Below, in pieces: positions 8,643 through 49,144 of a DNA stretch of 59,323 nt. The notes under the pieces were generated by a model. That model saw only the letters and a program-made list of their open reading frames with translations, made no database searches and had not been told where the DNA came from. Each line of letters starts with the position of its first letter. Positions within the stretch are counted from its first letter, which is position 1. The translations under genes were made by a program, and so were the position numbers. Origin of the DNA: an uncultured Bacilli bacterium (GTDB lineage: Bacteria; Bacillota_I; Bacilli_A; RF39; UBA660); assembly GCA_949425575.1 (NCBI GenBank), contig CASPVX010000003.1:1-59323 (forward strand). The letters run 5' to 3'.

Positions 8643-8797
8643 AAAATCACCATTTTTAGTATGTGATATAAAGATAATTTAAAACATAAAATATTTTAAT
8701 TATATAAACTAGAAAATAAATAAAAAAACATTTATTTTTCGATTTGACTAAATTAAAAAAATATATATAATATAGTCACAAGAAAAGGGGAATTTAT

Positions 8798-9802: not shown

Positions 9803-9898
9803 TGTTTTTTCTTTACAATTTTATACAAAAAACGAAAATATTTTATTTCGCAAAAGTTTCATAATAGATTATAATATATAATATAAGGGGAGATGAAT

Positions 9899-10792: not shown

Positions 10793-10866
10793 TATAGTAT
10801 AAACTATACTTTTTATATGCAACTTTTTAAATAAAAAAAATATGATACTAAGAAAGAGGTATTGGA

Positions 10867-11475
10867 ATGATAACTTTTTTAGTGCTTATTTTTACATTAT
10901 CTTTAGATACATTTGTTGCGTCTTTATCTTATGAAGCAAGTAATATAAAAATACCAATAATTTCTAACATAATAATTAGCTTTATTTGTTCGTTTGTTTT
11001 AGCTCTATCGCTTATATTTGGAAATGTAATAGGTGAATACATTAATGACAATATATTAAAATTTGTATCTTTTCTAATACTATTTTCAATTGGTATTTTT
11101 AAAATATTTGATGAAAAATTAAAAATGTATATTAGAAATATTAGTTTTAAAAAAAGCAGTTTATCAAAAATAAAAATGATTATAAAAATTTATTCAGATT
11201 ATGAAAAAGCAGATGCTGATAATTCTAAAAGACTTTCAGCAGTAGAAGCTATTTCATTAGCACTAGCACTATCACTTGATGGTTTTAGTGCAGGAATTGC
11301 TTTTAATACTACTTATTTTTTAATATTTAATGTTTTTGTTTTATCTTTAGTTATTAATATGCTAATAATTTTATTTTCTAAATTTGTTAGTCACTTTACA
11401 TATAATATAAATATAGATTTTTCAAGAATCAGTGGAATGGTATTTATTATATTAGGAATTTTGAAAATTTTTTAA
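10867..11475 (+). CDS. MntP/YtaF-family membrane protein (sporulation YtaF-like)
   Basis: Duplicated LSLD.F motifs (TLSLDTFVASLSY and ALSLDGFSAGIAF), six hydrophobic segments. Confidence 0.6.
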   Translation: MITFLVLIFTLSLDTFVASLSYEASNIKIPIISNIIISFICSFVLALSLIFGNVIGEYINDNILKFVSFLILFSIGIFKIFDEKLKMYIRNISFKKSSLSKIKMIIKIYSDYEKADADNSKRLSAVEAISLALALSLDGFSAGIAFNTTYFLIFNVFVLSLVINMLIILFSKFVSHFTYNINIDFSRISGMVFIILGILKIF

Positions 11476-11524
11476 CTAGTAAAGTTACTAGTTTTGTTGT
11501 ATAATTAAAATAGGAGGAGATTAT

Positions 11525-35366: not shown

Positions 35367-37541
35367 GTGAAAAATGGGAAACGAAAAAGTAGCACATGGA
35401 AAACTCCTAAAAGACTCTTTTTTGTTTTTTTTCTAATATTTGGAATTTTATTTGCTAGATATTGTTATCTAGCTCTTTCGACTACTGTAAATGGTCACAA
35501 TATCCAAGAGTTTGCTGCCAATCGTAACACCGTTGCTAAAATTCTTCAAGCTAAAAGAGGTACTATTTATGATACTGAGGGAAATATTTTAGCTAATAAT
35601 GTAACTTCATATACAATAATTGCATATTTAGATGAAAAAAGAAGTACAAAAAAACAATTAAATCATGTGGAAGATATAGAAGCAACTGCTGAAGCACTCG
35701 CACCTATATTAGATGCAGATAAAAATAAAATAATTGATATTTTACAAAAGGGTAAAGATAAAAAAAGATATCAAGTTGAGCTTGGTACAATGGGAAAAGA
35801 TTTAACTGAATTAAAAAAAGGTGAGGTAGAAGAATTAAATTTACCAGGAATTGATTTTGAAGAGAGTTATAAAAGATATTATCCAAATGGAGATTTTGCT
35901 TCTTATATTTTAGGGTATGCTAAAACAAATGAGAAAAAAGAAGAAGATGGAAGTATTACAACTACCATTGATGGTGAACTCGGAATAGAAGCTAAATTTG
36001 ATAAAAAGTTAAAAGGTACAGATGGTTATTTATCTTATCAAAGAGATAGGTTTGGTTATAAAATTCCAGATACAAAAGAAACAAGAATAGATGCAGTTGA
36101 TGGAAGTAATATATATTTAACTTTAGATGCTTCTATTCAAAGGTTTACAGAAACAGCAGTTAAAACAATTGAAGAAAAATATAAACCAGATTGGTCAATT
36201 ATTTCTGTTATGGACGCTAAAACAGGAGACATTTTAGCTTCATCTTCAACACCATCATTTGATCCAAATAAAAGAAATATTACGAATTACGAAAATCCAT
36301 TAGTTTCAAACGCGTTTGAACCAGGAAGTACAATGAAAATTTATACATATATGTGTGCATTAGAAAAAGGAACTTATAATGGAACAAATACTTTCAAGTC
36401 AGGATCTATTAAAGTGGAAGATGCTACAATTAAGGATTGGAATAATACTGGATGGGGAACAGTAACATATGATAAAGGGTTTGAGTATTCAAGTAATGTA
36501 GGTATTTCTTATATGCTTCAATCATTTATTGGTAGAGAAGATTTAAAAAATTGTTTTGAAAAATATGGTTTTGGAAAAGCTACTGGCGTTGATATGGCAA
36601 GAGAACTTAGTGGGAAATTAGGATTTAAGTATCCTGTTGAAGTTGCGAATGCTGGATTTGGACAAGGTATTCAAACCACACCAATTCAGCATTTAAAAGC
36701 GTTAAGTATGCTTGCTAATAATGGTAAGGCTTTAACGCCACATGTTGTTTCAAAAGTTGTAGATCCAAATACAGGTAAAACAACATACAAGAGAAAAGTT
36801 GAACTTTCTGAACAGTTAGCAAGCAAAGAGACTATATCGAAGATGAAAGATTTAATGTATAATGTTATCAATAGTGACGATCCACAAGCAACGGGTAGAA
36901 GATATAAAATAGATGGTTTTGAAATTATTGGGAAAACAGGAACCGCGCAAATATATGATAGTAGGAATGGTGGGTATTTAAAAGGAAGCAATGCTTATGT
37001 TTATTCATTCGCAGGAATGTATCCTAAAGATGATCCAGAAATTATTATATATGCTGCTGTTAAAAGACCAAATGTAGGTGCTACAACGGTTTTATCAGAA
37101 CCTATTGTAGAACTTATAAAAAACATTTCTAAATATAAAAAAATGTTTACTTCTATTACAAATAAAGATAGTATGAAATCTATTAAATTAGATTCTTATA
37201 TTAATAAAAAAACAGAAAATGTTAAATTAGAACTTGCTAATAGTAAAATTAATACAGTAGTTATAGGTAATGGTGAAAAAATAATTAATCAATATCCTGC
37301 TAAAGGAGAAACAGTTTTATCATATGACAAGGTATTTTTAATTACTAATGATAACTCTAAAAAAATGCCAAATTTAATTGGGTATTCAAGATCTGAGGCA
37401 ATTTATTTAATGAAAACTTTAGGTTATGATTATGAAATAGAAGGTTATGGCTATGTCACTAATCAAAGCGTTGAAGCTGGTAAGAATGTCAACGGAAAAG
37501 TTATTATTAAATTAGAGAGTAAGGAAGAAAAAAAAGAATAG
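35367..37541 (+). CDS. pbpB: Class B penicillin-binding protein (PBP2B-type, two C-terminal PASTA domains)
   Basis: Dimerisation domain, STMK-type active site (EPGSTMK), SSN, KTGT. Two PASTA-like repeats at the C-terminus. Confidence 0.88.
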   Translation: MKNGKRKSSTWKTPKRLFFVFFLIFGILFARYCYLALSTTVNGHNIQEFAANRNTVAKILQAKRGTIYDTEGNILANNVTSYTIIAYLDEKRSTKKQLNHVEDIEATAEALAPILDADKNKIIDILQKGKDKKRYQVELGTMGKDLTELKKGEVEELNLPGIDFEESYKRYYPNGDFASYILGYAKTNEKKEEDGSITTTIDGELGIEAKFDKKLKGTDGYLSYQRDRFGYKIPDTKETRIDAVDGSNIYLTLDASIQRFTETAVKTIEEKYKPDWSIISVMDAKTGDILASSSTPSFDPNKRNITNYENPLVSNAFEPGSTMKIYTYMCALEKGTYNGTNTFKSGSIKVEDATIKDWNNTGWGTVTYDKGFEYSSNVGISYMLQSFIGREDLKNCFEKYGFGKATGVDMARELSGKLGFKYPVEVANAGFGQGIQTTPIQHLKALSMLANNGKALTPHVVSKVVDPNTGKTTYKRKVELSEQLASKETISKMKDLMYNVINSDDPQATGRRYKIDGFEIIGKTGTAQIYDSRNGGYLKGSNAYVYSFAGMYPKDDPEIIIYAAVKRPNVGATTVLSEPIVELIKNISKYKKMFTSITNKDSMKSIKLDSYINKKTENVKLELANSKINTVVIGNGEKIINQYPAKGETVLSYDKVFLITNDNSKKMPNLIGYSRSEAIYLMKTLGYDYEIEGYGYVTNQSVEAGKNVNGKVIIKLESKEEKKE

Positions 37542-37666
37542 AGTAATCTGTTCTTTTTTTGTAAATATACTAATTTTCTAAATTGGAGTATAAAAAAATA
37601 GGTTTCAATGTTATTTAATTATATGAAAATGGCAAAATAGCTAGGCGAAAATACCAAATTGGTCAT

Positions 37667-37695
37667 TTGTATTAATATTAAAAGTAATATATAGT
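37667..37695 (+). promoter_or_regulatory. Candidate promoter of the small-ORF mRNA (TTGTAT-17-TATAGT)
   Basis: The predicted TSS (~37702) coincides with the first base of the left inverted repeat. Confidence 0.45.
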
Positions 37696-37700
37696 GCATA

Positions 37701-37733
37701 TTGGAGAAATTGAAATCTCTATCGATGTCTACC
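37701..37733 (+). repeat. Left arm of a ~32-nt inverted repeat flanking the small ORF
   Basis: TTGGAGAAATTGAAATCTCTATCGATGTCTACC pairs with 37905..37936 as 14 bp + internal loop + 13 bp. Confidence 0.85.
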
Positions 37734-37768
37734 TCTCATAACCAAAAGTTAGAAAGGGGTTTGATATT

Positions 37769-37849
37769 ATGAATAAGAAAGATTACTTAGTAATATTGCT
37801 TGTTATAATCATCATTTTATTGATTTTATTTCCGCAAGGAATTAATTAG
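37769..37849 (+). CDS. 26-aa hydrophobic peptide, candidate type I toxin. Not in the ORF track
   Basis: RBS AAAGGGG 8 nt upstream. MNKKDYLVILLVIIIILLILFPQGIN. Confidence 0.5.
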   Translation: MNKKDYLVILLVIIIILLILFPQGIN

Positions 37850-37851
37850 AT

Positions 37852-37937
37852 AAAAAAAGACATCAAAACTAGTAATTGTTTTAATGTCTTTCACAATGAA
37901 AATTGGGTAGACATTGATATGTTTCAATATCTCCACT
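37852..37937 (-). ncRNA. Candidate ~85-nt antisense RNA (antitoxin), convergent with the small ORF
   Basis: Minus-strand extended -10 TGtTATAGT (37944..37952). Minus-strand terminator hairpin 37856..37891 followed by a U-run, ending 3 nt after the ORF stop. Confidence 0.45.
37905..37936 (+). repeat. Right arm of the inverted repeat
   Basis: GGGTAGACATTGATATGTTTCAATATCTCCAC. Confidence 0.85.
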
Positions 37938-37976
37938 AATTAAACTATAACACATTCCCTATAAATATTCTAGTAA

Positions 37977-38002
37977 AAAGAGAAAATTATTTCTCTTTTT
38001 TT
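37977..38002 (+). terminator. Intrinsic terminator closing the small-ORF transcript
   Basis: Stem AAAGAGAAA/TTTCTCTTT, loop ATTA, T-run. Confidence 0.7.
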
Positions 38003-38064
38003 GTGTCTATTTCTCCCATTACAGTATATATGTATAAAAGAATTTCATAAAAAAACGCTTATAA

Positions 38065-39615
38065 CTAAGCGATTTTTTTTGCATGTACTACTAGTCTATT
38101 ATCAGAATTGTTATAACAAGTAGACAATGTTAGAATTTTATCATTCGAATTTATATCTGTATTGAAGTTGTAAATACTTTTTTGTTTTATTGTTTGTAAG
38201 AAATCATTATAATTATTTTGATGTTTAAAATTAACTACTAAATAATCATTAGTAACTGGTGTTGTATAAATGGAAAATATTTTCCATTTTGATGATCCAC
38301 TACCAGTATCAAATGTTATTGTATGGTTGCTAGAATTAGTATACCAACTTTTGTTTAATACCTTTTTAAGTGAACCAAACATAATATTACCATCATTATG
38401 TCCATAAATAATAGTATTATTATCAAGTGGATTTATTTTATTTCGATAATCAGCAAATAACCATCCATTTTGATTCGCTTTTTTAGAAAAACTATGGTTT
38501 AAATAATAACTATTATCATTATGTTTTACAACTGGATAATCTACATTGGTATTATTTACTTTTAACCACCCAATAGTTTCATTATTTATTTTTTTTAGCT
38601 CACTTAAAATTTTGCTGTATTTTTTATTATATTCATTTTCTTCTTTTTTAATTTCTGTTTTAGCAACAGGAATAGGTTCCTTGTCAATTTTTTCAATTTT
38701 TTCTTGAACTTGTTTAATTTCATCATTAGCTTTAAAGTCAAAAAATTTATAAATTATAATTATTCCAATAATTAGCGTAATCATTATAAATAGAGAAGTT
38801 GTTAAGAGATTTAAATTAATTTGTTTTAAAAAATATTTTTCCTTATATTCATCTGAATATATTATTTTAATTTTGATTTTTTTCTCTTTTATTATACTTT
38901 GAATTTTCTTTAAGTAATCAATGGATTTAGAAATGTTTTCATTTTCCTCATATATATTTACTTTGATGTTCTTCTTGCCATTTTTAATTAAACATTCGAT
39001 AATGTTATGAATATCTTTATCATTATAATTTTTGACATCAATTGATTTTAATTTTTTATTTACTTTTAAAAATGTTTCAAAATCAATTAAATCATTTTTA
39101 TCAAATGTATTAATTATAATATTTTTCTTATAATAAATATCAGAGTAGGTAGCAATATTATTAGCTTTCATAAAATTGCTTATAAATAATAATTCACTTC
39201 TTACTTCCACAGTTAGTTTTTTGTTTAATTTTTCAAACATAAAATTAGAAATATTGAAACAATTTAAATGATTTAAATATTTTGAACTGTAAATCATTTC
39301 TGCCAAATCACTAGTAATATTTTCATCACTAGTAATATGTAACTTGGTTAAATTAGGGAGATAATTAGTAAGGTGAAGGACTAGTTTTGTTAGTTTTATA
39401 TCTTTTACAACTATATTAGTTACATTATTTTTTAAAATAACAACATTTAAAAATGCTGATACTAATTCCATATTTTCAATTATATACTCATCTGTAAAGA
39501 TTATGTTTTTAGTATTAATTATGTTGGTATTATTAAGATTAGCATTATCTGTTTCTTTGTTATATGTACTAAAACATAAATCGTTTTTTGTAACTTTTAT
39601 AAGTATTTTATGCAT
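38065..39615 (-). CDS. srtB: Class B sortase with ~270-aa N-terminal cytoplasmic extension
   Basis: GWLKVNNTNVDYPVV...YYLNH, IIYGHN (His), TLSTC (Cys), NRLVVHA (Arg). TM helix at ORF residues ~275-296. GGAGGG RBS before the ATG at 39615. Confidence 0.8.
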   Translation of the reverse strand: MHKILIKVTKNDLCFSTYNKETDNANLNNTNIINTKNIIFTDEYIIENMELVSAFLNVVILKNNVTNIVVKDIKLTKLVLHLTNYLPNLTKLHITSDENITSDLAEMIYSSKYLNHLNCFNISNFMFEKLNKKLTVEVRSELLFISNFMKANNIATYSDIYYKKNIIINTFDKNDLIDFETFLKVNKKLKSIDVKNYNDKDIHNIIECLIKNGKKNIKVNIYEENENISKSIDYLKKIQSIIKEKKIKIKIIYSDEYKEKYFLKQINLNLLTTSLFIMITLIIGIIIIYKFFDFKANDEIKQVQEKIEKIDKEPIPVAKTEIKKEENEYNKKYSKILSELKKINNETIGWLKVNNTNVDYPVVKHNDNSYYLNHSFSKKANQNGWLFADYRNKINPLDNNTIIYGHNDGNIMFGSLKKVLNKSWYTNSSNHTITFDTGSGSSKWKIFSIYTTPVTNDYLVVNFKHQNNYNDFLQTIKQKSIYNFNTDINSNDKILTLSTCYNNSDNRLVVHAKKIA

Positions 39616-39683
39616 AAAAGCGCCCTCCATTATCCATGCTATAAATATAATAGCACACCCATGTTATATAAGTAAAGAAAATC

Positions 39684-39704
39684 CTTGACATTATATTTGT
39701 CAAG
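39684..39704. promoter_or_regulatory. Perfect palindrome CTTGACA-N7-TGTCAAG in the divergent srtB/substrate intergenic region
   Basis: 7-bp arms, read directly. It contains TTGACA on both strands. Confidence 0.4.
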
Positions 39705-39781
39705 TTTTGAAAACTTACAATTAATAACATTTACATTATAAGTGTCATCTGGTAATATTTATAGTAGAAAGAAGGTATATT

Positions 39782-40891
39782 ATGAAGAAGCTAAAAATGT
39801 TATGTATAGCCTTTATTGCAATGATATTCAGTATGACAGGGGCAAGTGCAATAAGTCTAAGTTTTTCAGAAAATTCAAGCAATGGAAATATTACGGTTTC
39901 ACCATATTCAAGTGGGCTTAAATATCAATGGGTGCATGTTGATTACGAACCATATCATAAGGTGGAAGCGCATCTTAAGGGAATCGTTAATGAAATTAAA
40001 GAAATGCATAAAGATTTAGAGGCGGCTAGAGTTAAAGCAAATAATGCAAGACAAAAACATAGCGATGCTAATGAGAAATTAAAAGCAGAACAAGCAAAAG
40101 ATCCAAACTCTGATGCAACAAAGCTTGCAAGACAAGAAGCACTAAATGCGTATAATGAATATGAAGCAGCTAAAGCAAAATATGATGTAGAGGAAAATAA
40201 ATACAGTGCTAAATATGCAGAATTTAATAATGAAGTAGCTAAAATTGCTCCAATAAATGAAAGTAATTGGAAAGATATGACAAGTGGAACTGTAGCGTTT
40301 GATTCTACTGGTTATTCTCAATCAGATGCAGCAGTTATATGGGTAAAAACTAGTACTGGCAATGAAAGTAAAATTTATCTTTATGATCAACCAACAAATT
40401 CTTTAAGGGCTGAAGTTGACTGTCCTGTTATAAGAAAATTTTGTGAAGTAGATGGAAATACATATTATGGTAAAGATGGAAACAAAGTAACAAAAGAAGT
40501 TTACGAAGATGAATGCTTACCTAAAATTTGTAAAATAGTAGATGGTAAACATTATGGTCTTTCAGGAAAAGAAGTAGATGAAAAAACTTATAATGAAGAA
40601 TGTGGACCAAAAGTATGTGTATTTGACAATGGAAAGTATTACAATAAAGAAGGTAAAGAAGTTACAGAAGAAGAGTATAATAAAGAATGTCATCCAACAT
40701 GTAAAGTAGAAGATGGAAAATACTATGGACCTGAGGGAGAAGAATTAACAAAAGCAGAATATGAAAAATTATGTGCTTCAAATCCTAAAACAGGGTTCGG
40801 ATTACCATTCACAGTAGGATTCATTTTACTTGGTGGTGGAGCAGCAGGAATTATGCTTGCTAACAGAAAAAAACTATTTAAACAAATTTAA
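39782..40891 (+). CDS. Cell-wall-anchored surface protein with NPKTG sorting signal. Coiled-coil region plus four Cys-bracketed repeats
   Basis: Signal peptide. C-terminus NPKTGFGLP + hydrophobic stretch + RKKLFKQI. Adjacent to and divergent from srtB. Confidence 0.8.
   Translation: MKKLKMLCIAFIAMIFSMTGASAISLSFSENSSNGNITVSPYSSGLKYQWVHVDYEPYHKVEAHLKGIVNEIKEMHKDLEAARVKANNARQKHSDANEKLKAEQAKDPNSDATKLARQEALNAYNEYEAAKAKYDVEENKYSAKYAEFNNEVAKIAPINESNWKDMTSGTVAFDSTGYSQSDAAVIWVKTSTGNESKIYLYDQPTNSLRAEVDCPVIRKFCEVDGNTYYGKDGNKVTKEVYEDECLPKICKIVDGKHYGLSGKEVDEKTYNEECGPKVCVFDNGKYYNKEGKEVTEEEYNKECHPTCKVEDGKYYGPEGEELTKAEYEKLCASNPKTGFGLPFTVGFILLGGGAAGIMLANRKKLFKQI
40442..40774 (+). repeat. Four tandem 25-aa Cys-to-Cys repeats (period 28-29 aa)
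   Basis: CEVDGNTYYGKDGNKVTKEVYEDEC / CKIVDGKHYGLSGKEVDEKTYNEEC / CVFDNGKYYNKEGKEVTEEEYNKEC / CKVEDGKYYGPEGEELTKAEYEKLC. Confidence 0.9.
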
Positions 40892-40962
40892 TTAAAAAGG
40901 CGGTAACGTCTTTTTTTATTGGCATTTTTAAAGTTTATTGCTATAATATAGGTAGGAAGTGA

Positions 40963-41550
40963 GTGGTAAAATTGGAAAAGGAGAAAAGGCTTCAAAATAG
41001 TAATGTAAAATACACTATTTTGAATTATATTTTATTCTTTTTTGCTTTTTCATTTATTGGCTGGATTTGGGAAGTAGGTCTTTGTCTAGTTCAAAGTGGT
41101 GAACTTGTAAAAAAAGGAACATTGTTTGGTCCTTGGCTTCCAATTTATGGAGCAGGCGGAGTTTTAGTCTTAATTTTATTTAGACGATTTTATAAAAAAC
41201 CAGTATTAACATTCTTTTTATCTATGATAGTTTGTTCAATACTAGAATATTTTACAAGCTATTTTTTAGAAAAGGCAACTGGACTTAGATGGTGGGATTA
41301 TAGTGGATTTCTTTTAAATTTAGATGGAAGAATTTGCTTAGAAGGTTCTATTATATTTGGTATTGGGGGCTGTTTAGTAATTTATTATGCGGCACCATTT
41401 TTAAAAAAATACTTTGATAAAATAAAACGACTACCACTTATTATTTTTACAATAATTCTTTCATTACTGTTTATCGCAGATGAAGTGTATTCTAGGTTTC
41501 ATCCAAACGTAAGTGCAGGAATAAATATAACAGAAAAAAACACAGGCTAA
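40963..41550 (+). CDS. CmpB-like 'putative ABC-transporter type IV' membrane protein (paralogue of 3509..4066)
   Basis: GWIWEVGL...GTLFGPWLPIYGAGG...LEYFTSYFLEKATGLRWWDYS. Confidence 0.55.
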   Translation: MVKLEKEKRLQNSNVKYTILNYILFFFAFSFIGWIWEVGLCLVQSGELVKKGTLFGPWLPIYGAGGVLVLILFRRFYKKPVLTFFLSMIVCSILEYFTSYFLEKATGLRWWDYSGFLLNLDGRICLEGSIIFGIGGCLVIYYAAPFLKKYFDKIKRLPLIIFTIILSLLFIADEVYSRFHPNVSAGINITEKNTG

Positions 41551-42377
41551 ATGCTTGTGTTTTCTTTTTTGTTTTTAAGTTTAATATATAATTCTGTAAA
41601 CGTTGCTAGATGGTATGGATTAGAATATAAAATTCCAGTAATACCTAATGTTAATGCATCTAGTATATTCCATCCAATAAATGATAAATCTAAAACGAAT
41701 GCTCTCCACTTATTACCATACATCATTTCTTTTGAACGTTTAAATATTTCTTTTCGGTCCAATTCAGGATTATCAGCTAATATGTATGGAATCATACGAT
41801 ATTCATAATATTTTATTGGAAGACCAATAATTGTAAAGGTCCATAGAACTAAATAAATATATCTAAATATCATTGTTACAACAACATTATCATAGTAGTT
41901 TCCTTTTTGGAATGCGAATAAAAGTGTTTTTAATTTTACTTTGCTTTTAGAATGATTTTCAATAAAAAACTTTCGGCTACCTACAATAAAAGGGTAGGCA
42001 AATAGGAATTTATAAGCTATTTCTAAACAAAATGCTAGTAGTAATCCGAATGCTAAATAATAGTGATTTTCGAAAAATCTTTCTATTGAGCCAATTAGTT
42101 TAAATAAAAAAGATTGTGATTCTGAAACTATATCTACAAGTTGATCTGTTACCGTTCCATCATTTAAATTAATAATTTCTAAATTAGTTTTATTTTCTGA
42201 GTGATTCACCACATTTTCATCAATAACAACCTCAGCGTTATAAGATTGTGTTATGGTAAATGAACCTGTGTACTCATAAGTTAGAAATCCAAGTAAGAAA
42301 CAAACAGCTATACAAAGCAAATAGTTTTTAGATATTTTTTTTCTTGCTGAAGATTTTAGTTCAGATCTTTTCCACAT
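41547..42377 (-). CDS. DUF975-family membrane protein
   Basis: MWKRSELKSSARKKISKNY start typical of DUF975, polytopic. AGGAG RBS. Confidence 0.55.
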   Translation of the reverse strand: MWKRSELKSSARKKISKNYLLCIAVCFLLGFLTYEYTGSFTITQSYNAEVVIDENVVNHSENKTNLEIINLNDGTVTDQLVDIVSESQSFLFKLIGSIERFFENHYYLAFGLLLAFCLEIAYKFLFAYPFIVGSRKFFIENHSKSKVKLKTLLFAFQKGNYYDNVVVTMIFRYIYLVLWTFTIIGLPIKYYEYRMIPYILADNPELDRKEIFKRSKEMMYGNKWRAFVLDLSFIGWNILDALTLGITGILYSNPYHLATFTELYIKLKNKKENTSI

Positions 42378-42512
42378 ACTGTTAACTCCTATCTACTAGT
42401 AATTATATATTAATTTTTTATACTTTTCAATAAAAGGAGGTATATTAATTATGGACAATTGAATGTTTTTCACTTTTATAGTATAGTAAAAATGAAAAAT
42501 CGAGGTGATTAT

Positions 42513-42985
42513 ATGGGAAGATTAATAATGACACAAGAAGGTTATGATAAAAAACTGAAAGAGTTTAATAGAATAAAGCAAAAATTAAAACAAACCTCCA
42601 GAAATAAAATTGAAGCAGCTTATGATGGATCAGGCGATACATGGCATGACAATTTTACTTATGAACAATTAGATTTACAAGAAGAAGGGCTATTATCCCG
42701 TTTAGAAAATATGCAGGATGATTAAATAATACTGTTATTATAAAGAGAGAAAATCTTAATAATAATTTAATTAATATAGGTGATAAGGTTTTGGTAACAA
42801 TAATGTATTTTGATGGTGATAGTGAGGAATTGCTTCTTATATTAGATGATGGATCCAGTGAAAAAAATGCCGTGACCTTAAATTCCCCTTTAGGAAAAAT
42901 TTTATATAAGGCGGAAATAGGAAAAGAATATGAGTATAATGTTAATGATGAATTAAATAGAGTTATAATCAAGAAAAAATTGTAA
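42513..42985 (+). pseudogene. GreA/Rnk-like factor interrupted by a frameshift near 42720 (paralogue of 43050..43556)
   Basis: The N-part (42513..42725) stops at TAA. The C-part continues in another frame, open from 42722 (LNNTVIIKRENL...INIGDKVLVTIMYF...VTLNSPLGKILYKAE). Together they are collinear with the intact neighbour. Confidence 0.7.
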
Positions 42986-43049
42986 TATATTAATTAGTTT
43001 GACTTATTTTAACTAATGATATATTATAGCCAAATAAGAAGTGGTATAT

Positions 43050-43556
43050 ATGGCAAAATTAGTTTTAGATGCAGCTGGGTATGAAAATTATTTAGCAGAT
43101 ATTGCAGAATTAGAAGAAAAATTATCAAAATTAAGAAGATTTAAAGGTGAAGTTGCAGTTCATGAAGGAAATGTATGGCATGATAATTTTACATTTGAAC
43201 AAGCAGAGAATGAGGAAAGAATGCTTATGAGAGAAATTTCTAATAGATATAAATTATTGGCTGAGGCAGAAATAGTAGAAGTTGGCAATTCTTTAGGTGT
43301 AGAATTAAATGATATTGTAAGTATTGAGCTTAATACAGAATATGGTGTTAGAAATATGATTGTAAAATTAGTTTCAACTTTATCTGATAATGGCGATGAA
43401 ATTAAGGAAATAACCTTAAATAGTCCAATGGGACAGGCTATTTATCAAAAAGAACCAAATGCTGCTTTTTCATACTCAGTTAATGGTAGAATATTAACTG
43501 GTACAATAATGAATATAGAGAAACCTATTCTTTTGATAAAAAGTAGGGAAGAATAA
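43050..43556 (+). CDS. GreA/GreB/Rnk-like protein (coiled-coil plus Gre C-terminal domain)
   Basis: GNVWHDNFTFEQAE (position of the Gre GD.SENAEY block). C-domain ...ITLNSPMGQAIYQKE... Confidence 0.55.
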   Translation: MAKLVLDAAGYENYLADIAELEEKLSKLRRFKGEVAVHEGNVWHDNFTFEQAENEERMLMREISNRYKLLAEAEIVEVGNSLGVELNDIVSIELNTEYGVRNMIVKLVSTLSDNGDEIKEITLNSPMGQAIYQKEPNAAFSYSVNGRILTGTIMNIEKPILLIKSREE

Positions 43557-43557
43557 A

Positions 43558-44172
43558 ATGGTAATAGCGATTGAAGGTATGGATGGAGTAGGTAAGACGA
43601 CGATTGCTAAACATCTTTCAGAAAAATATGGTTTTGCTTTTATTGATAAACCTATAAAATATCTTTTTGGAAAAGAAAATGAAAAAATAACACCAGAATT
43701 AGACCGATTACTTAATTTAATTTATGATTATGATGATAATATAATAAAGACATGGTTTTTTGGATTAGGTAATATTATGGCAGTTAGAAATTTTGCAGGT
43801 CATGATATAATAATCGATAGACATTTTGTTTCTAACTACTACTGGAATAGTGATGATTCTTGTCAAGCGATTTATAGAGCCTTGTTTGATATAATAGGTA
43901 AACCTGATTTAACGATAATACTTTATGCTGATACTGAAACAAGAATGCAAAGAATTAAGCACAGGGATGAAACTGATCCAGATTTGTTTGATGATGAAAA
44001 ATATGATGATGGCTTTTCAAGAATGATAGAGTTTGTTGAAAATAATTCCCATTTTTATAGAGTAATTGATACAAGTGGTTTAACAATTAATGAAGTAAAA
44101 CATTCAGCTGATTCTATCATGGATGATTTTCTAAATAAAAATATATCTTTAGTGATGACAAAGACTAGATAA
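43558..44172 (+). CDS. Thymidylate-kinase-like P-loop (d)NMP kinase
   Basis: IAIEGMDGVGKTT P-loop (Tmk pattern ..EG.DG.GKTT), DRHFVSNYYW (Tmk DR...S..AY). Confidence 0.55.
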   Translation: MVIAIEGMDGVGKTTIAKHLSEKYGFAFIDKPIKYLFGKENEKITPELDRLLNLIYDYDDNIIKTWFFGLGNIMAVRNFAGHDIIIDRHFVSNYYWNSDDSCQAIYRALFDIIGKPDLTIILYADTETRMQRIKHRDETDPDLFDDEKYDDGFSRMIEFVENNSHFYRVIDTSGLTINEVKHSADSIMDDFLNKNISLVMTKTR

Positions 44173-44196
44173 AATAATATACAAATGGAGGAATGA

Positions 44197-45324
44197 ATGA
44201 TAAATTTAAAGAATGTTATAGAAAATGAATTAGAATTTGATTTATATTTGTCTAAAATAAATGAAATTAAAAACTATTTAATGACCTTTGGGAAAAGGTC
44301 TTTTTGGCAAATAGTAGAATATGTAGGCGGCAGTGAACGTAGGATGTTAAGATTGCTAGAAGAAATGGTTAATGAAAAAATTATTTATTTTGATAAACTA
44401 GATAATACCTTCTATTTGAAAAATAACAAAAGTAATAAGCATGATGATTATAAGTGCAAATATTGTAATGGTAGTACCGTCGAATTAAAAAAATTGAATA
44501 ATTTAATTCCAATTATGAAAAAGATATGGGAATCAAAGCCCAAACCAACATTATTATTTGATCAAAGACCAGTAACATTAAAAACTTCATTAAAAAGAGT
44601 GGCTTATTTTTTAAATAATAATGATGTATATCAAAAAAATATTGTTTTTCTTGGTGATGATGATTTAACCGGAATTTGTTTAGCATTAGCCAATAAAGAT
44701 TGTAATGTTACTGTTTTAGATGCTGATAAAAGATTAATTGATTTTATAAATGATATAGCACAAAAATATAAATTAAAAATTAATGCGAGAGTTTTAAATG
44801 TTATGAACAAAATCCCAAAAGATTTACGAATGAAATTTGATGTTTTAATGACAGATCCAACGCCAGAAAAAATACCATTCACTGTTTTTATGAATGCTGC
44901 TATAGATCTTTTAAAAAAAGAGGGTGTGCTGTATACCTCAATATATTCAAGTGCAATGATGAAAAATATGGATTTACAAAGAATTATAACGGACATGGGA
45001 TTATATATTACAGAAATGATCTCTGGTTTTACTCATTATCAATATATTTACAATTTATATTCTACTAAAGATGTTGATTTGTTAAACAAATATAATATAA
45101 AATTTAATGACGATAGTATATGTTTTACGGAAACAATGTTTAGATTAGAAAAAAATATTAATACAGTAAAATTACCTATTGAATATAGTTCTGAACAAAT
45201 GATGGGAAAAGCGACTAAAAGGGTAATTAATAATGACGATGCTGAAGTTGCAGAAAACAGTGTTTATTTAACAAATTTAAAAAAAAGTATGAAAAATAGT
45301 ATTAAGGAAACATATAGGAGTTAG
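44197..45324 (+). CDS. BpsA/DUF43-type aminopropyltransferase (branched-chain polyamine synthase-like) with N-terminal wHTH-like region
   Basis: FDQRPVT, VFLGDDDLTGICLAL, VTVLDADKRLIDFI, FDVLMTDPTPEK. Confidence 0.65.
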   Translation: MINLKNVIENELEFDLYLSKINEIKNYLMTFGKRSFWQIVEYVGGSERRMLRLLEEMVNEKIIYFDKLDNTFYLKNNKSNKHDDYKCKYCNGSTVELKKLNNLIPIMKKIWESKPKPTLLFDQRPVTLKTSLKRVAYFLNNNDVYQKNIVFLGDDDLTGICLALANKDCNVTVLDADKRLIDFINDIAQKYKLKINARVLNVMNKIPKDLRMKFDVLMTDPTPEKIPFTVFMNAAIDLLKKEGVLYTSIYSSAMMKNMDLQRIITDMGLYITEMISGFTHYQYIYNLYSTKDVDLLNKYNIKFNDDSICFTETMFRLEKNINTVKLPIEYSSEQMMGKATKRVINNDDAEVAENSVYLTNLKKSMKNSIKETYRS

Positions 45325-45325
45325 T

Positions 45326-45694
45326 ATGACAATAGGTAGACAAGCAATTATGGATGTTTATGATTATAAGAAGATAGATGTCGAAAATATAGAAGAGATA
45401 AAGGAAATGCTCATAAAATCGGCAAAAGAATCAAATTTACATATAGTAGACTCTAAATTCCATAAATTTGAACCGATTGGAATTAGTGGTGTTTTAATTT
45501 TGGCGGAATCTCACTTGACTATTCATACATGGCCTGAGTATAATTATATTGCAATAGATATTTTCACTTGTGGTAATAGCATTAATCCAGTGGCAGCTTG
45601 CGAAATTATTGCAAAAAATATTTGTTCTAATAATTTTGATATAAAATATTATGAAAGGGGAGATAAAAATGCAATATCAAGAATTGGAAATTAA
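45326..45694 (+). CDS. speH: S-adenosylmethionine decarboxylase proenzyme (pyruvoyl, class 1)
   Basis: GISGVLILAESHLTIHTWPEYNYIAIDIFTCG, the self-cleavage ES site and flanks as in B. subtilis SpeD. Confidence 0.9.
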   Translation: MTIGRQAIMDVYDYKKIDVENIEEIKEMLIKSAKESNLHIVDSKFHKFEPIGISGVLILAESHLTIHTWPEYNYIAIDIFTCGNSINPVAACEIIAKNICSNNFDIKYYERGDKNAISRIGN

Positions 45695-46475
45695 GTTGTT
45701 AGGAATAAATAAGGAAGAAATAATCAAAAAACTAAATGATTTGGGTGCAAAATTTGAAGGTGATAGGATCCAAAAAATTTATACATATGATTGTTATGAT
45801 CCTATTTTAATGTATAAATTAGCCATTGAAGATTATAAAATAACTGGTCTTAGAAATGCCTTAAGAAAAATTATTAATGTAATTTCCTATATTAAACCAA
45901 CTTTTATAGATGAGGATAAGCTTATTTTTAAGGAAATCCTAGGTTATGATACTATAGATGATTATATTGAAAGTAATTTTGAGAATATTGATATTGGTAA
46001 ATTAACAAATAAAAAAATACTTTCTGTTATAGAAGAAACAAAAAATAGATTTTTTAAATGGATTCGTTTAAGACAAGATGGAGAGAAAATAGAACTAACT
46101 TTAAAATATATTTACAATACTAATGCGGAATATGAAATTGATCAAGTTAAAGAAGTAGAAATACTTGTAAATGATTTTGAAACAGCTAATAAATTGGTTG
46201 AAGAAATGGGATATTTCAAAAGAAAATTAGTTGAAAAAAGAAGAATTAGTTATACTTATAATGATTTACAAATAGAGATTGATGAATGGCCATTGCTTGA
46301 ACCCTATGTTGAAATTGAAGGTACAAATGCTGATGAGATTTATGCATTAGCTAAAAAGCTAGGATATGCTAAAAATAAAACAAAAGTAATGAATACAGAG
46401 GATGTTTATCTTGCTAAAGGAATAGATTTAACTAATTATGAAGTTATGACCTTTGATTATCAGGAGCTAGCATAA
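45669..46475 (+). CDS. CYTH-domain (triphosphate tunnel metalloenzyme / CyaB-like) protein with an internal insertion
   Basis: N-terminal ExExK (QELEIKL), WIRLR, ELTLKY, EVEI, EIDEW..EPYVEIE. AGGGGAG RBS. Start lies inside the speH 3' end. Confidence 0.65.
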   Translation: MQYQELEIKLLGINKEEIIKKLNDLGAKFEGDRIQKIYTYDCYDPILMYKLAIEDYKITGLRNALRKIINVISYIKPTFIDEDKLIFKEILGYDTIDDYIESNFENIDIGKLTNKKILSVIEETKNRFFKWIRLRQDGEKIELTLKYIYNTNAEYEIDQVKEVEILVNDFETANKLVEEMGYFKRKLVEKRRISYTYNDLQIEIDEWPLLEPYVEIEGTNADEIYALAKKLGYAKNKTKVMNTEDVYLAKGIDLTNYEVMTFDYQELA

Positions 46476-46514
46476 GAAAAGAGTATAAGTTTTTTTCTGA
46501 AAAAGGAGTATTTT

Positions 46515-47159
46515 ATGACTTGGTATGATATATATTTAAACGAAATAAAACTAAAAAAAAATGCAAAAAATTATATAGAAGATAAAGTAAAACACAAACA
46601 GATTTTTATAAAAATGTTAAAAAAATATGGCGACATGGGAAATGGGAAGTTAATAGAAGCGGGCTGTGGTACAGGAATTATATCATCATATATGGCTTCA
46701 TTTGGATATAGTGTTGTTGGAGTTGATATAGATGAAAATATTCTTGAATTATCTAGTAATTTAGCTCAGGAGTATTTTGGCAAAAAAGGAAAAATTTCAT
46801 TTATAAAAAAATCAATTTTTAATTTAAAATACAAATACAAAGAATTTGATGTATGTTTTAGTAATGGTGTGTTAGAACATTTTGAAGACAGCGATATAAT
46901 AAATTCTTTAAAGCAACAATTATATATTTCAAAGTATGTAATTGTAGGAATACCAACACAATTTTTTAATCAAGATGAGGCCTTATATGGAGATGAACGC
47001 TTTTTGCCATTAAAGCATTGGAGGAAACTTATAAAAAAATCTGGCGGAAAAATTATTGAGGAGCATTCTTTTCATTATATGTCTCTTTTTGAAAAAATAA
47101 TGGCATTTAATAAAGTGGGTAGGCCAAAACCTTTTAGATTATTTGTTATTGAAAGCTAA
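46515..47159 (+). CDS. Class I SAM-dependent methyltransferase
   Basis: LIEAGCGTGIIS (motif I), VVGVDID (motif II), FSNGVLEHF. Confidence 0.75.
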   Translation: MTWYDIYLNEIKLKKNAKNYIEDKVKHKQIFIKMLKKYGDMGNGKLIEAGCGTGIISSYMASFGYSVVGVDIDENILELSSNLAQEYFGKKGKISFIKKSIFNLKYKYKEFDVCFSNGVLEHFEDSDIINSLKQQLYISKYVIVGIPTQFFNQDEALYGDERFLPLKHWRKLIKKSGGKIIEEHSFHYMSLFEKIMAFNKVGRPKPFRLFVIES

Positions 47160-47178
47160 ACTTATGTCCAATACAAAT

Positions 47179-47205
47179 AAAAAAGACTTTTATAGTCTTT
47201 TTTTA
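47179..47205 (+). terminator. Intrinsic terminator closing the six-gene operon
   Basis: Stem AAAAGACT/AGTCTTTT, 5-nt loop, T-run. Confidence 0.75.
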
Positions 47206-47239
47206 ATTTGTTAATCGTATACTTAAATGGTGACTGGAC

Positions 47240-49144
47240 ATGTTTACAAAAAATATTCATTCGCGTATGAAAATAGCAGTTTTATGTTTTGCTTTTTTGT
47301 TTCTTGTAATTATAGGGAAAGTGTTTTATATTCAGGTAATTGATTATAAAAAAATAAATGGCTATGCTGAAAATTTATGGAGTCGTAATTTACCTATAAA
47401 AGCTGATAGAGGAATTATTTATGATAGAAATGGTGTTATTTTAGCTGATAATGTAACAACAACTTCTTTAGTTGTAATTCCAAATCAAATAAAAGATAAG
47501 AAAAAAGTTGCAGTTGATTTAGCCAAAATATTAAATGTTAGTGAAGATGCAATGTATAAGCATATTAGTAAAAAAACATCAATTGAAAGAGTTCATCCAG
47601 AAGGAAGACGTTTATCTTATGAAATAGCTGATAAGATTAAAAATTTAAACTATGAAGGTGTTTATTTAGTAAAGGAATCTAAAAGAAATTATCCTGGAGA
47701 TACTTATTTATCACATACCTTAGGATATGTAGGAATTGATAATCAAGGCCTTAGCGGACTTGAACTTATGTATGATGATTGTTTAACTGGTGAAGATGGG
47801 GCAATTAAATATTTTAGTGACGCTAAAGGAAATAAGCTTAAATTAAACGAAGTTTATGAGCAACCTCAGAAAGGTATGAATATCACATTAACAATTAATG
47901 ATGAAATTCAAAAGGCAGTTGAAAAAGAACTTGATAATGCTGTTACTAAATATAATCCAGACAGAGTTATCGCACTAGTGATGAATCCTAATAATGGAGA
48001 AATACTAGCTATGTCATCAAGACCTAATTTTTCTCCAGCAAATTATCAAAAATATACAGTAGAAGAGATTAATAGAAATTTGCCAATTTGGGCTACTTAT
48101 GAACCAGGATCAACTTTTAAAATAATTACATTAAGTGCAGCATTAGAAGAAGGTAAGGTTGATTTACATAAAGATAAATATCATGATAGTGGATCTATAA
48201 GAGTAGAAAATGCTACTTTGCACTGTTGGAAACATGGCGGGCATGGGTCTGAAACATTTATGCAAGTAGTTGAAAACTCATGCAATCCTGGATTTGTTGT
48301 GTTAGGACAGAGGCTTGGCAAAAATACATTATTTGATTATATTGATAAATTTGGATTTGGCGCAAAAACAGGTGTTGATTTAAATGGAGAAGCTAGTGGA
48401 ATTATTTTTAGTAGAGATAAAGTAGGACCTGTAGAGCAAGCTACAACTGCGTTTGGGCAAGGTGTTTCTGTAACCCCAATACAACAAGTAACTGCAGTAA
48501 GCGCAGCTATCAATGGAGGTATTTTATATAAGCCTTATATTGTAAAAAGTATTAATGAACCAGAAACAAATACTGTAGTTAAACAAAATAATAAAACAAT
48601 GGTTAGAAGAGTTGTTAGTGAAAAAACAAGTAAAGAGGTAAGAGAGGCTTTAGAAAGTGTTGTTAGTAATGGTACTGGAAGAACTGCTTATATAGATGGA
48701 TATAGAGTTGGTGGAAAAACAGGAACCGCCCAAAAAGTATCTAATGGTAGATACTTATATAATAATTATATTTTATCTTTTATCGGTTTTCTTCCTGCTG
48801 ATAAACCAGAAGTTGTAGTTTACTTTGCGATTGATAATCCAAAAGGAGTTCAGCAGTTTGGTGGTGTTATAGCAGGTCCTCCTGCAAAAACAATTTTAGA
48901 AGCATCGATAACCGCTTTAAATATTGAAAAACCTACTGGAGGAACTGAAAAAAAATATAACTATTTAGATAAAAAATATATAACAGTTTCTAATGTGGTA
49001 GGAATGGATGTAAATAAGGCAAAAGAAACACTTAAAGACTTTGAAGTAAAAGTTGATGGTAATGGAAAAACAATTACATATCAATCTCCAGAAGCTGGTT
49101 CAAGAATTTTAGAAGGATCTAAAGTTAGAGTATATACAGGATAG
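47240..49144 (+). CDS. spoVD: Class B penicillin-binding protein, SpoVD-type (one PASTA domain)
   Basis: EPGSTFK, SCN, KTGTAQ. A single C-terminal PASTA domain. Position upstream of mraY. Confidence 0.8.
   Translation: MFTKNIHSRMKIAVLCFAFLFLVIIGKVFYIQVIDYKKINGYAENLWSRNLPIKADRGIIYDRNGVILADNVTTTSLVVIPNQIKDKKKVAVDLAKILNVSEDAMYKHISKKTSIERVHPEGRRLSYEIADKIKNLNYEGVYLVKESKRNYPGDTYLSHTLGYVGIDNQGLSGLELMYDDCLTGEDGAIKYFSDAKGNKLKLNEVYEQPQKGMNITLTINDEIQKAVEKELDNAVTKYNPDRVIALVMNPNNGEILAMSSRPNFSPANYQKYTVEEINRNLPIWATYEPGSTFKIITLSAALEEGKVDLHKDKYHDSGSIRVENATLHCWKHGGHGSETFMQVVENSCNPGFVVLGQRLGKNTLFDYIDKFGFGAKTGVDLNGEASGIIFSRDKVGPVEQATTAFGQGVSVTPIQQVTAVSAAINGGILYKPYIVKSINEPETNTVVKQNNKTMVRRVVSEKTSKEVREALESVVSNGTGRTAYIDGYRVGGKTGTAQKVSNGRYLYNNYILSFIGFLPADKPEVVVYFAIDNPKGVQQFGGVIAGPPAKTILEASITALNIEKPTGGTEKKYNYLDKKYITVSNVVGMDVNKAKETLKDFEVKVDGNGKTITYQSPEAGSRILEGSKVRVYTG

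Follow-up and report, generated by a model that had tools for sequence, protein, structure and literature searches.

What is made by an operon that sets a predicted S-adenosylmethionine (SAM) decarboxylase and an aminopropyltransferase among enzymes that handle nucleotides? The question is raised by a stretch of 59,323 nucleotides (the window) from contig CASPVX010000003.1 of an uncultured Bacilli bacterium of the RF39 lineage (GCA_949425575.1). Six genes at 43050-47159 were recognised there by an initial annotation made from the sequence alone, which proposed as product either a branched or methylated polyamine made under nucleotide-linked control or an aminopropylated nucleotide-type molecule. 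The second idea is now favoured. The first has become weaker because the aminopropyltransferase, although similar to the polyamine enzyme BpsA, belongs to a separate subfamily with an altered acceptor side and lid. We give about an even chance to the operon being a biosynthetic module for a modified nucleotide and not for a polyamine. The gene combination had also been taken to be undescribed, and no description of it or of its chemistry was found in the literature searched, a search partly blunted by prefix matching of names.

The six open reading frames (ORFs) all lie on the + strand, at 43041/43050-43556, 43558-44172, 44197-45324, 45326-45694, 45651/45669-46475 and 46515-47159. Their junctions are, in order, a gap of 1 nt, a gap of 24 nt, a gap of 1 nt, an overlap of 26 nt and a gap of 39 nt, so that the number, strand and spacing of the genes are as first described. 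They encode a Gre-like factor, a P-loop nucleotide kinase, the BpsA-like enzyme, the decarboxylase SpeH, a CYTH protein and a class I methyltransferase. All six family assignments of the initial annotation hold, and the two that are weak in profile searches, Gre and CYTH, are confirmed by structure models.

We have little doubt that the six genes form one functional unit. Whether they co-occur in other genomes, left as a question by the initial annotation, is answered by 25 loci of the BpsA-like subfamily (dereplicated at <90% identity; genes counted within 7 kb; locus labels L and protein labels P are ours), which span Bacillota, Candidate Phyla Radiation (CPR) bacteria, DPANN archaea and others. 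SpeH is found beside the BpsA-like gene in 24 of the 25, the methyltransferase in 16, and the Tmk-like kinase, CYTH and a radical SAM enzyme (viperin/MoaA-like) in 12 each; a family that we call u223 follows with 10, the Gre-like factor and LysR with 6 each and HAD phosphatase with 4. Since u223 and the Tmk-like kinase never co-occur, 22 of the 25 loci carry one or the other. Down to about 50% identity the genes keep the order Tmk-Bps-SpeH-CYTH-methyltransferase, and speH overlaps or directly adjoins the CYTH gene; the gene order recurs in many unrelated contigs at 40-75% protein identity. SpeH is found fused to the BpsA-like protein in P0017 and P0063, and in P0081 (L028, a Nanoarchaeota locus) the fusion partner of the BpsA-like protein is the methyltransferase. 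Polyamine precursor genes of the spermidine/agmatine pathway are absent from all loci of the subfamily. Among species-representative genomes, full-length BpsA-like matches of at least 35% identity come from metagenome-assembled genomes (MAGs) of gut Bacilli and Clostridia, a 'Mycoplasma' MAG, Melioribacter, Saccharibacteria and Gammaproteobacteria, and on the archaeal side from Nano-, Woese- and Pacearchaeota.

The case for a nucleotide product begins with the gene at 44197-45324, which encodes a predicted BpsA-like aminopropyltransferase of 375 aa dependent on decarboxylated SAM (dcSAM). Profile searches did not reassign it: it matches BpsA_C (PF01861) at 4e-44 and, in the PDB, Thermococcus BpsA (Tk-BpsA) at 8e-27. 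Its relatives are few, with 82 matches in 5.8 billion clusters. A profile search of 1.84 billion representatives returned about 30 full-length, high-scoring clusters (50% identity), followed by a break in score to canonical BpsA, and the identity of thermophile and canonical BpsA to the window subfamily is at most 31%. Sequence comparison thus places the enzyme in a rare, separate subfamily and not among the orthologues of BpsA.

The donor and acceptor sides of the active site were compared between 21 subfamily and 60 canonical sequences, with columns mapped to Tk-BpsA numbering through 351-aa Thermococcus sequences. The donor side is kept, including the DQ motif, GDDDLT, Asp225 and Tyr290; in the window protein the invariant D155/D156 and D220 correspond to Tk D159/D160 and D225, and Y281 to Tyr290. 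In BpsA the acceptor is activated by Glu259, Tyr290 and Tyr316 (PMC12979288). Glu259 (Glu in 87% of canonical sequences) is S251 in the window, Tyr316 (Tyr in 85% of canonical sequences) is F310 and is Phe in 100% of the subfamily, and Glu228 is replaced by Pro. Of the four residues counted as polyamine-activating, the subfamily has lost two. The acidic C-terminal lid of Tk-BpsA (Glu339, Asp342, Asp343, Glu344, Glu345) has been proposed as an aminopropyl carrier (PMC12979288); the canonical lid, GDELYNDEE, aligns in the subfamily with a basic GKATKRV and an extension of about 30 aa. Accordingly, the net charge of the C-terminus is +3.1 in the subfamily vs -2.5 in canonical BpsA, and the mean net charge of the whole protein is +3.2 vs -8.5. 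New invariant arginines are found at R124, R48, R49 and R52, and the N-terminal winged-helix-like domain carries the motif GGSxRRxxRLL. The charge reversal and the changed acceptor residues would argue against a polycationic acceptor and would fit an anionic one. The initial annotation had seen here the BpsA route of hyperthermophiles in a new host. That claim is not supported, given Glu259 to Ser, Tyr316 to Phe, the basic lid and the low identity; because defining features of BpsA were tested for and not found, the operon falls outside the BpsA polyamine pathway.

The partners of the BpsA-like enzyme are assigned with varying strength. SpeH (45326-45694, 122 aa), a pyruvoyl SAM decarboxylase of class 1b and the predicted source of dcSAM, scores 131.9 bits to TIGR03330, over the cut-off of 75.65, and matches Pfam AdoMet_dc at 9e-34; its translation shows the Glu-Ser self-cleavage site (LAES, followed by H) and the Cys in FTCG. 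The kinase (43558-44172, 204 aa) is of the Tmk/CMPK2 type and matches Pfam Thymidylate_kin at 4.5e-16. It reaches 47.3 bits to the dTMP kinase equivalog TIGR00041, whose cut-off is 83.25, and because only the Pfam domain match passes it is a Tmk-fold enzyme but not the housekeeping Tmk. Its PADLOC matches are PDC-M51B (3.9e-18) and VakA (2.8e-13), a model name that we take to stand for 'viperin-associated kinase'. The methyltransferase (46515-47159, 214 aa) is a class I SAM-dependent enzyme matching Methyltransf_11, 31 and 25 at about 1e-14; its best PDB match, phospho(methyl)ethanolamine N-methyltransferase (9.4e-8), covers the SAM-binding region only and was not used. Motifs are intact in SpeH, in CYTH, in the kinase (P-loop and DRH), in motif I of the methyltransferase and in the donor site of the transferase. 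The u223 protein (about 205-229 aa) stands in the place of the Tmk-like kinase at L004:9951-10622, L027:11741-12364, L098:12239-12877 and seven other loci. Its N-terminus contains 'KPE', and the His of 'FKYIHTPD' is invariant; both features resemble nucleoside diphosphate kinase (NDK), and the protein may be NDK-like (PDB profile E 0.012, Pfam NDK 0.044), which we offer as a lead only.

The fifth gene (45669-46475, 268 aa) shares its first 26 nt with the end of speH, and its homologues begin at the equivalent of 45669. The protein has no Pfam match and its TIGR00318 match lies below the cut-off. The original assignment as CYTH was borne out by the profile of its homologues, which matches Saci_0718, a triphosphate-tunnel metalloenzyme (TTM) of Sulfolobus, at 2e-8, and by an AlphaFold2 (AF2) model with a mean predicted local distance difference test (pLDDT) of 94.2. 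In Foldseek the model matches CYTH/TTM, class IV cyclase and thiamine triphosphatase structures at E 1e-9 to 1e-5, with PH1012, SaTTM and class IV cyclases at 1e-9 to 1e-6. A helical insertion of about 80 residues occupies residues ~45-126. The invariant residues are E5, E7 and K9 (in the N-terminal ELEIK), R133, R135, K146, E162, E164, D205, E215 and E217. By its modelled tunnel fold, N-terminal ExExK and conserved tunnel-lining residues, the protein is thus a predicted CYTH enzyme. An abundant gut group of the same CYTH-with-insertion family (L093-L095, CYTH at 8001-8801; 266 aa, 66% identical to the window protein) sits 3' of a 162-aa P-loop kinase, without BpsA-like gene or SpeH; a radical SAM gene, a gene with a phosphoribosyltransferase-like motif, a short CYTH and a NUDIX gene lie nearby.

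The relatives of the operon point in the same direction as its transferase. Radical SAM partners score best to viperin (NF038283 8e-33 and 1.9e-32; PADLOC pVip 9e-38), at about 113 bits vs the NCBIfam viperin cut-off of 180, and the DPANN partner scores best to MoaA (2.7e-43). Viperin and MoaA both act on free nucleoside triphosphates (NTPs), and eukaryotic viperin is partnered with the Tmk-family kinase CMPK2. Viperin-family radical SAM genes are present in L001, L004, L098 and a set of longer operons; L098 and L001 hold both the SpeH/BpsA-like module and a viperin-like enzyme. Other additions also concern nucleotides. The close relatives L091 and L099 insert a PynA/YjjG-like pyrimidine 5'-nucleotidase (1e-23), the L001 type adds a cytidine-deaminase-like gene (1.8e-13), an APH-like kinase and a DHH pyrophosphatase-like gene, and genes for NUDIX and Ham1 XTP/dITP diphosphatase (1.3e-40) recur in related loci.

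The longer operons, which we call type D, have 12-14 genes and are found at five loci (L102, L115, L127, L149, L167). That of L167:1-10845 reads Gre, Gre, LysR, Cof-type HAD, Tmk-like kinase, Apyc1/RNase Z-like metallo-beta-lactamase-fold (MBL) protein, 692-aa U32, DAHP-synthase-like gene, methyltransferase-like gene, pVip-like radical SAM enzyme, second radical SAM-like gene, CYTH with insertion, and a family that we call u227. The pVip-like enzyme of type D matches the PADLOC model at 1.8e-42, and PADLOC calls in these operons would be limited to the pVip and kinase genes. The Apyc1/RNase Z-like MBL phosphodiesterase accompanies CYTH both here and in L004. Four of the six window genes are common to these viperin-containing operons, a kinship overlooked in the initial annotation, because they have likely orthologues in type D: Tmk (45-49% identity), methyltransferase (53-55%; the window type is present in L102 and L149 only), CYTH (36-38%) and Gre (35-38%). 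The SpeH and BpsA-like pair, by comparison, behaves as an exchangeable chemistry module. A second conserved module consists of a UMP/CMP-kinase-like gene, Peptidase_U32, a fusion of a GHMP (homoserine-kinase-like) kinase and a methyltransferase, a HisC/CobD-like pyridoxal phosphate (PLP) enzyme and Ham1. It lies directly 3' of the Tmk-Bps-SpeH-CYTH-methyltransferase cluster or beside tandem Gre-like genes (L007:11072-16849; L089:2923-8814; L113:10724-17038) and, speculatively, could supply a C3-amine phosphate in the manner of PduX/CobD.

The remaining constituent of the operon would be directed at RNA polymerase (RNAP). The first of the six genes, Gre2 (43050-43556, 168 aa; the start agrees with homologues), scores 0.0045 to the Pfam GreA_GreB C-terminal domain and 8e-8 to NCBIfam GreA, below the cut-off (32 bits vs 145 for the GreA equivalog). 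Its AF2 model (pLDDT 80) is that of a Gre-fold protein, with a coiled coil and a C-terminal globular domain; Foldseek matches it to Gfh1 in complex with RNAP (3aoi_X; E 5.9e-10, TM-score 0.67/0.72) and also to GreB, GreA and Rnk, with Gfh1, GreB and GreA ranging from E 6e-10 to 1e-6. The operon has a seventh member upstream of the six genes, overlooked in the initial annotation: Gre1 (42514-42985, + strand), a pseudogene whose halves are in different frames, the coiled-coil part at 42514-42725 and the C-terminal domain at 42791-42985, with a 1-nt frameshift near 42720. The halves match Pfam GreA_GreB_N (0.0043) and GreA_GreB (1.2e-4). In L100, a syntenic relative whose BpsA-like protein is 74% identical, an intact 159-aa Gre1 stands directly upstream of the six genes; to it the window gene aligns by tblastn with 87% identity over aa 1-70 in frame +1 and 74% over aa 71-156 in frame +3. 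Gre1 is intact in L100/L101 and L009/L010, and in the latter two the Gre-like genes form a tandem pair at the head of the operon. The frameshift could be that of a true pseudogene or a sequencing error.

All cluster-associated Gre-like homologues share an invariant tip, G-[DN]-x-W-H-D-N (GNVWHDNF in Gre2), and the family tip G-D-x-W-H-D-N is one residue longer than that of GreA. A scan of metagenomes for the motif G[DN]xWHDN found 279 Gre-like relatives. Of their loci of at least 8 kb, 25/45 carry at least one, and 20/45 at least two, genes of a nucleotide set made up of Ham1, u227, the GHMP-kinase-methyltransferase fusion, the HisC/CobD-like PLP enzyme, U32, the UMP/CMP-kinase-like gene, methyltransferase, Tmk, CYTH, viperin-like enzyme and MBL; tandem Gre pairs occur in 15 of 80 Gre-family loci. 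Two further contexts of these genes were observed. At L160:3207-11544 and L176:9355-17696 tandem Gre-like genes accompany a helix-turn-helix-WYL regulator, a Vut_1/YhhQ-like transporter, a FemAB-like transferase, a 436-aa methyltransferase fusion, Ham1 and u227. At L130:7980-10489 and L170:8008-10480 Gre-like genes with the same tip lie directly 3' of a UvrD/HelD-like helicase of about 670 aa, which would be another pairing of RNAP-associated factors.

These parts can be assembled into a pathway. SpeH, on its family assignment, would decarboxylate SAM to dcSAM, with which the BpsA-like enzyme would aminopropylate a nucleotide. This acceptor is probably a pyrimidine nucleotide, modified at its base, at its sugar or at an oxygen of its phosphate. 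By phosphorylating this nucleotide or a precursor of it, the Tmk/CMPK2/VakA-like kinase may lead towards the diphosphate or triphosphate, and the methyltransferase may methylate the nucleotide or the new amine. CYTH, judging from its fold and residues, would act at the triphosphate end by hydrolysis or cyclisation. The Gre-like factor or factors, whose fold is that of proteins entering the secondary channel of RNAP, would bind the host enzyme there and so couple the product to transcription. Most likely they would confer self-immunity, the host RNAP cleaving out or tolerating the analogue; alternatively they may mediate or regulate the action of the analogue. The operon would then be one variant of a diversified cluster family, with a constant set of Gre-like factor, kinase, CYTH and methyltransferase and with exchangeable chemistry modules, namely SpeH and the BpsA-like enzyme here and a viperin-like radical SAM enzyme, U32, or a GHMP-kinase and CobD-like pair elsewhere.

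What such a product is for, be it defence, antagonism or regulation, is the least certain step. By analogy with prokaryotic viperin-kinase systems, the role is likely one in conflict, either defence against phages and mobile elements or antagonism. Several loci are found in mobile or variable surroundings. The element that carries L091 is conjugative or mobilisable and encodes NikA, MobL, a coupling protein and ArdC. L001 adjoins a serine recombinase and TnpV, L098 adjoins an integrase, an excisionase and a Schlafen-like gene, and L089 lies beside an integrase or serine recombinase. The variable island around L004 also holds XRE pairs, an ADP-ribosylglycohydrolase and a DUF2290-helicase pair, and about 7 kb downstream of L097 (Anaerolineales) lies a SAVED/DncV-like pair of the CBASS type. 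The operon is also dispensable and decays, because L096, at the same chromosomal site (9733-11486), keeps only remnants: a truncated AdoMet_dc (97 aa), the CYTH gene (protein 87% identical to that of the window) and the methyltransferase; the two Gre genes have been lost there, as have those for the kinase and the BpsA-like enzyme. A wider proposal, which we hold to be rather doubtful, is that the clusters constitute a class of RNAP-directed conflict systems not recognised before. Their exchangeable modules (dcSAM aminopropylation, viperin-type dehydration, U32-type hydroxylation with methylation, and a GHMP-kinase and CobD-like C3-amine route) would make modified NTPs that poison foreign polymerases, and the Gre-like factors, often in tandem, would immunise the host RNAP by excising or excluding the analogue.

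Several observations weigh against a nucleotide analogue used in conflict. The identity of the acceptor is read from neighbours and residue changes only, and RNA or DNA would fit the basic residues of the transferase as well as a free nucleotide. L022 and L097 show the BpsA-like gene with SpeH alone. The window operon contains no radical SAM gene, by its ORFs and by profile scan, and therefore cannot make a chain terminator of the 3'-deoxy-3',4'-didehydro (ddh) type. LysR, present in the 6 loci counted above, and the long operons with U32, DAHP-synthase-like and FemAB-like genes look metabolic or antibiotic-biosynthetic more than defence-like. PADLOC (2023) recognises the window kinase only, and in sister loci also the viperin-like enzyme; it has no specific model for the BpsA-like enzyme, SpeH, CYTH or Gre, which give generic methyltransferase-type matches only. 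No BpsA-like relative was found in IMG/VR viral contigs or PLSDB plasmids. As to Gre, 20 of the 45 Gre-family loci have other, housekeeping-looking contexts, for example PolA-Fpg-TruB-Gre-YebC or beside a UvrD/HelD-like helicase. The tip motif is therefore not exclusive to the clusters, and we claim an enrichment and no strict rule. In E. coli GreA two acidic tip residues, D41 and E44, are required for the stimulation of cleavage. The first acidic position is Asn in Gre2, and Gre1 has Asp there yet is frameshifted, so that Gre function in the window operon may be impaired. A reading as phage DNA hypermodification was dropped for lack of support, given the same absence from IMG/VR and PLSDB.

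Could the product be a polyamine after all? SpeH and the BpsA-like enzyme would then make a long, branched or N-methylated polyamine, with the kinase, CYTH and Gre as regulators or passengers. SpeH is a bona fide SAM decarboxylase, the matches to BpsA_C and Tk-BpsA are strong, the dcSAM-binding motifs, Asp225 and Tyr290 are retained, and the two loci with SpeH alone would suit such a pathway. We nevertheless consider it unlikely, as Glu259, Tyr316, Glu228 and the entire acidic lid are replaced, the net charge is reversed, the identity to canonical BpsA and the break in the score distribution set the enzyme apart, the partners are consistently nucleotide enzymes, viperin-like proteins included, and no locus holds spermidine/agmatine pathway genes. 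Modification of a macromolecule appears equally improbable. Here the aminopropyl group would go to a base or terminal phosphate of tRNA, rRNA or DNA, with methylation by the methyltransferase, the P-loop kinase would be a polynucleotide kinase, CYTH an RNA triphosphatase at 5' ends, and Gre would work on nascent RNA. The subfamily-specific Arg/Lys residues and GGSxRRxxRLL of the winged-helix-like domain are compatible with a nucleic acid. Cet1-type RNA triphosphatases have the CYTH fold, and the U32 family, found in sister operons, includes RNA pyrimidine hydroxylases. The recurrent partners, however, act on free nucleotides (pyrimidine 5'-nucleotidase, cytidine-deaminase-like protein, Ham1, NUDIX and the NDK-like gene), as do viperin and MoaA; moreover, the kinase is of the Tmk/CMPK2 type and not the Pnkp/Clp1 type, and the other genes of the operon have no nucleic-acid-binding domains.

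Two further uses of a decorated nucleotide deserve mention. It might be a signal, either a second messenger or an alarmone; CYTH would then be a cyclase of the class IV type or an enzyme that handles pyrophosphate, and the Gre-like factor would be the receptor of the signal on RNAP, comparable to ppGpp-DksA. CYTH matches class IV adenylate cyclases structurally at E ~1e-6, an Apyc1/RNase Z-like phosphodiesterase goes with it in L004 and type D, and Gre-like genes are a constant partner. Yet the matches of CYTH to triphosphatases are no poorer than those to cyclases, the operon has no effector or sensor domain, and decoration as heavy as aminopropyl, methyl and radical SAM steps is unusual in messengers, all of which makes signalling quite unlikely. 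Production of an exported nucleoside antibiotic, a secreted toxin against competitors made by a small biosynthetic cluster, would agree with the mobile and patchy distribution, and the APH-like kinase and nucleotidases of L001 could serve self-resistance or prodrug steps. Aminopropyl-bearing nucleoside and peptide-nucleotide antibiotics do exist (PMC10491745). However, a gene for an exporter or uptake peptide is found in neither the window operon nor most of its relatives, and the cluster also occurs in CPR and DPANN genomes, so we judge this use very unlikely. That six adjacent genes of unrelated functions are neighbours by chance is hardly credible, in view of an order and adjacency conserved at 40-75% identity in many lineages, the overlapping frames and the fusions.

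With a modified nucleotide as the favoured product, the operon can be set beside known systems. It is related to viperin-kinase nucleotide-analogue clusters, from which it differs by a chemistry module and a recurrent RNAP-factor partner that are both new. Prokaryotic viperin (pVip) together with a nucleotide kinase reportedly forms antiviral systems, the work being that of Bernheim and colleagues in 2021. The window shares with these a kinase matching VakA/PDC-M51B, sister loci pairing the BpsA-like enzyme with viperin-like enzymes, mobile and patchy loci, and Tmk, CYTH, methyltransferase and Gre genes likely orthologous to those of pVip operons; it differs in having no radical SAM gene. To our knowledge, SpeH, the BpsA-like enzyme, CYTH, the methyltransferase and Gre are not components of described pVip systems. 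The BpsA and SpeH/SpeD pathway of hyperthermophiles (EC 2.5.1.128; Tk-BpsA, PDB 5XNC) has the same fold, BpsA_C domain, donor-side residues and adjacent SAM decarboxylase. It is distinguished by the acceptor-side substitutions, lid, extension and charge given above and by its setting: hosts of the window type are mesophilic gut, CPR and DPANN organisms, whose genes have nucleotide-enzyme partners and no polyamine genes. In plant TTM1/TTM2 (PDB 7Z67) a uridine/nucleoside monophosphate-type P-loop kinase is likewise combined with a triphosphate-tunnel enzyme, to which the CYTH model is a weak match (E 1.4e-3), whereas the window kinase and CYTH are separate genes and CYTH has the helical insertion. 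Among Gre-family factors (GreA/GreB, Gfh1, Rnk; compare DksA-ppGpp), the Gre2 model superposes on RNAP-bound Gfh1 and an acidic tip residue is conserved (the D of WHDN), but the tip is G[DN]xWHDN and not the GDLxENAEY of GreA, and the genes are often tandem and inside nucleotide-modification operons.

In microcin C the phosphate of a nucleotide is aminopropylated (PMC10491745), a precedent for an anionic nucleotide acceptor in which a SAM-derived aminopropyl group is placed on a phosphate oxygen. The group modified in the maturation of microcin C is the phosphoramidate of a peptidyl-adenylate, and the enzymes are unrelated: MccD and MccE comprise a methyltransferase-fold 3-amino-3-carboxypropyl (acp) transferase and a PLP decarboxylase that acts on its product, with no prior dcSAM. 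The MccD, MccE, MccB and precursor peptide families were undetected among the six window proteins, there is no exporter, and the likeness is one of chemistry only. Transfer of aminopropyl from dcSAM is described for polyamine synthesis only in a 2023 review of SAM chemistry (PMC10491745). If our reading is correct, a nucleotide-decorating BpsA-like enzyme would extend this chemistry beyond polyamines and would be the first case of dcSAM-dependent aminopropyl transfer onto a nucleotide, and the product could be a new nucleotide analogue from nature, interesting as a scaffold for antiviral or antibacterial compounds. That Gre-like factors repeatedly accompany operons for nucleotide modification, those with viperin among them, suggests self-protection of transcription in producers of toxic nucleotides. 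Because the cluster is found in gut Bacillota, CPR, DPANN and mobile elements, it is possibly a widespread and overlooked part of microbial conflict or metabolism.

The operon is closed by an intrinsic terminator at 47173-47211 (+ strand), with an A-tract, a hairpin and a U-tract, as first annotated; it folds better than shuffled sequence (minimum free energy -11.9 kcal/mol, z = -4.15; 0/200 shuffles as stable). A terminator-like hairpin within the BpsA-like gene (44283-44300, GACCTTTGGGAAAAGGTC then a T-run) is probably due to chance, there being no excess of such hairpins over shuffles. Upstream of the first of the six genes a candidate promoter-like site lies at 42999-43027 (+ strand; TTGACT, 17 nt, TATTAT; 10/12 consensus matches), which we treat as a candidate only because the region has no excess of such sites vs shuffled sequence. 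The consensus scan gave a second candidate at 42459-42487, 5' of the broken Gre1. No riboswitch or other RNA family was found by Rfam in 37500-47500.

The operon was originally placed within an accessory insertion of the division and cell wall (dcw) cluster, and its flanks bear this out. It is located between two penicillin-binding protein (PBP) genes, with mraZ, rsmH and PBP upstream and PBP, mraY and ftsW downstream. Alongside it, at 38065-42377, the accessory block holds genes for sortase, surface, CmpB-like and DUF975 proteins: a 521-aa sortase-domain protein on the - strand, a 369-aa surface protein with a C-terminal NPKTG sorting motif and repeated 'CxxxDGKYYG' units, a CmpB-like membrane protein and a DUF975 protein. 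L096 and L100 have this block as well.

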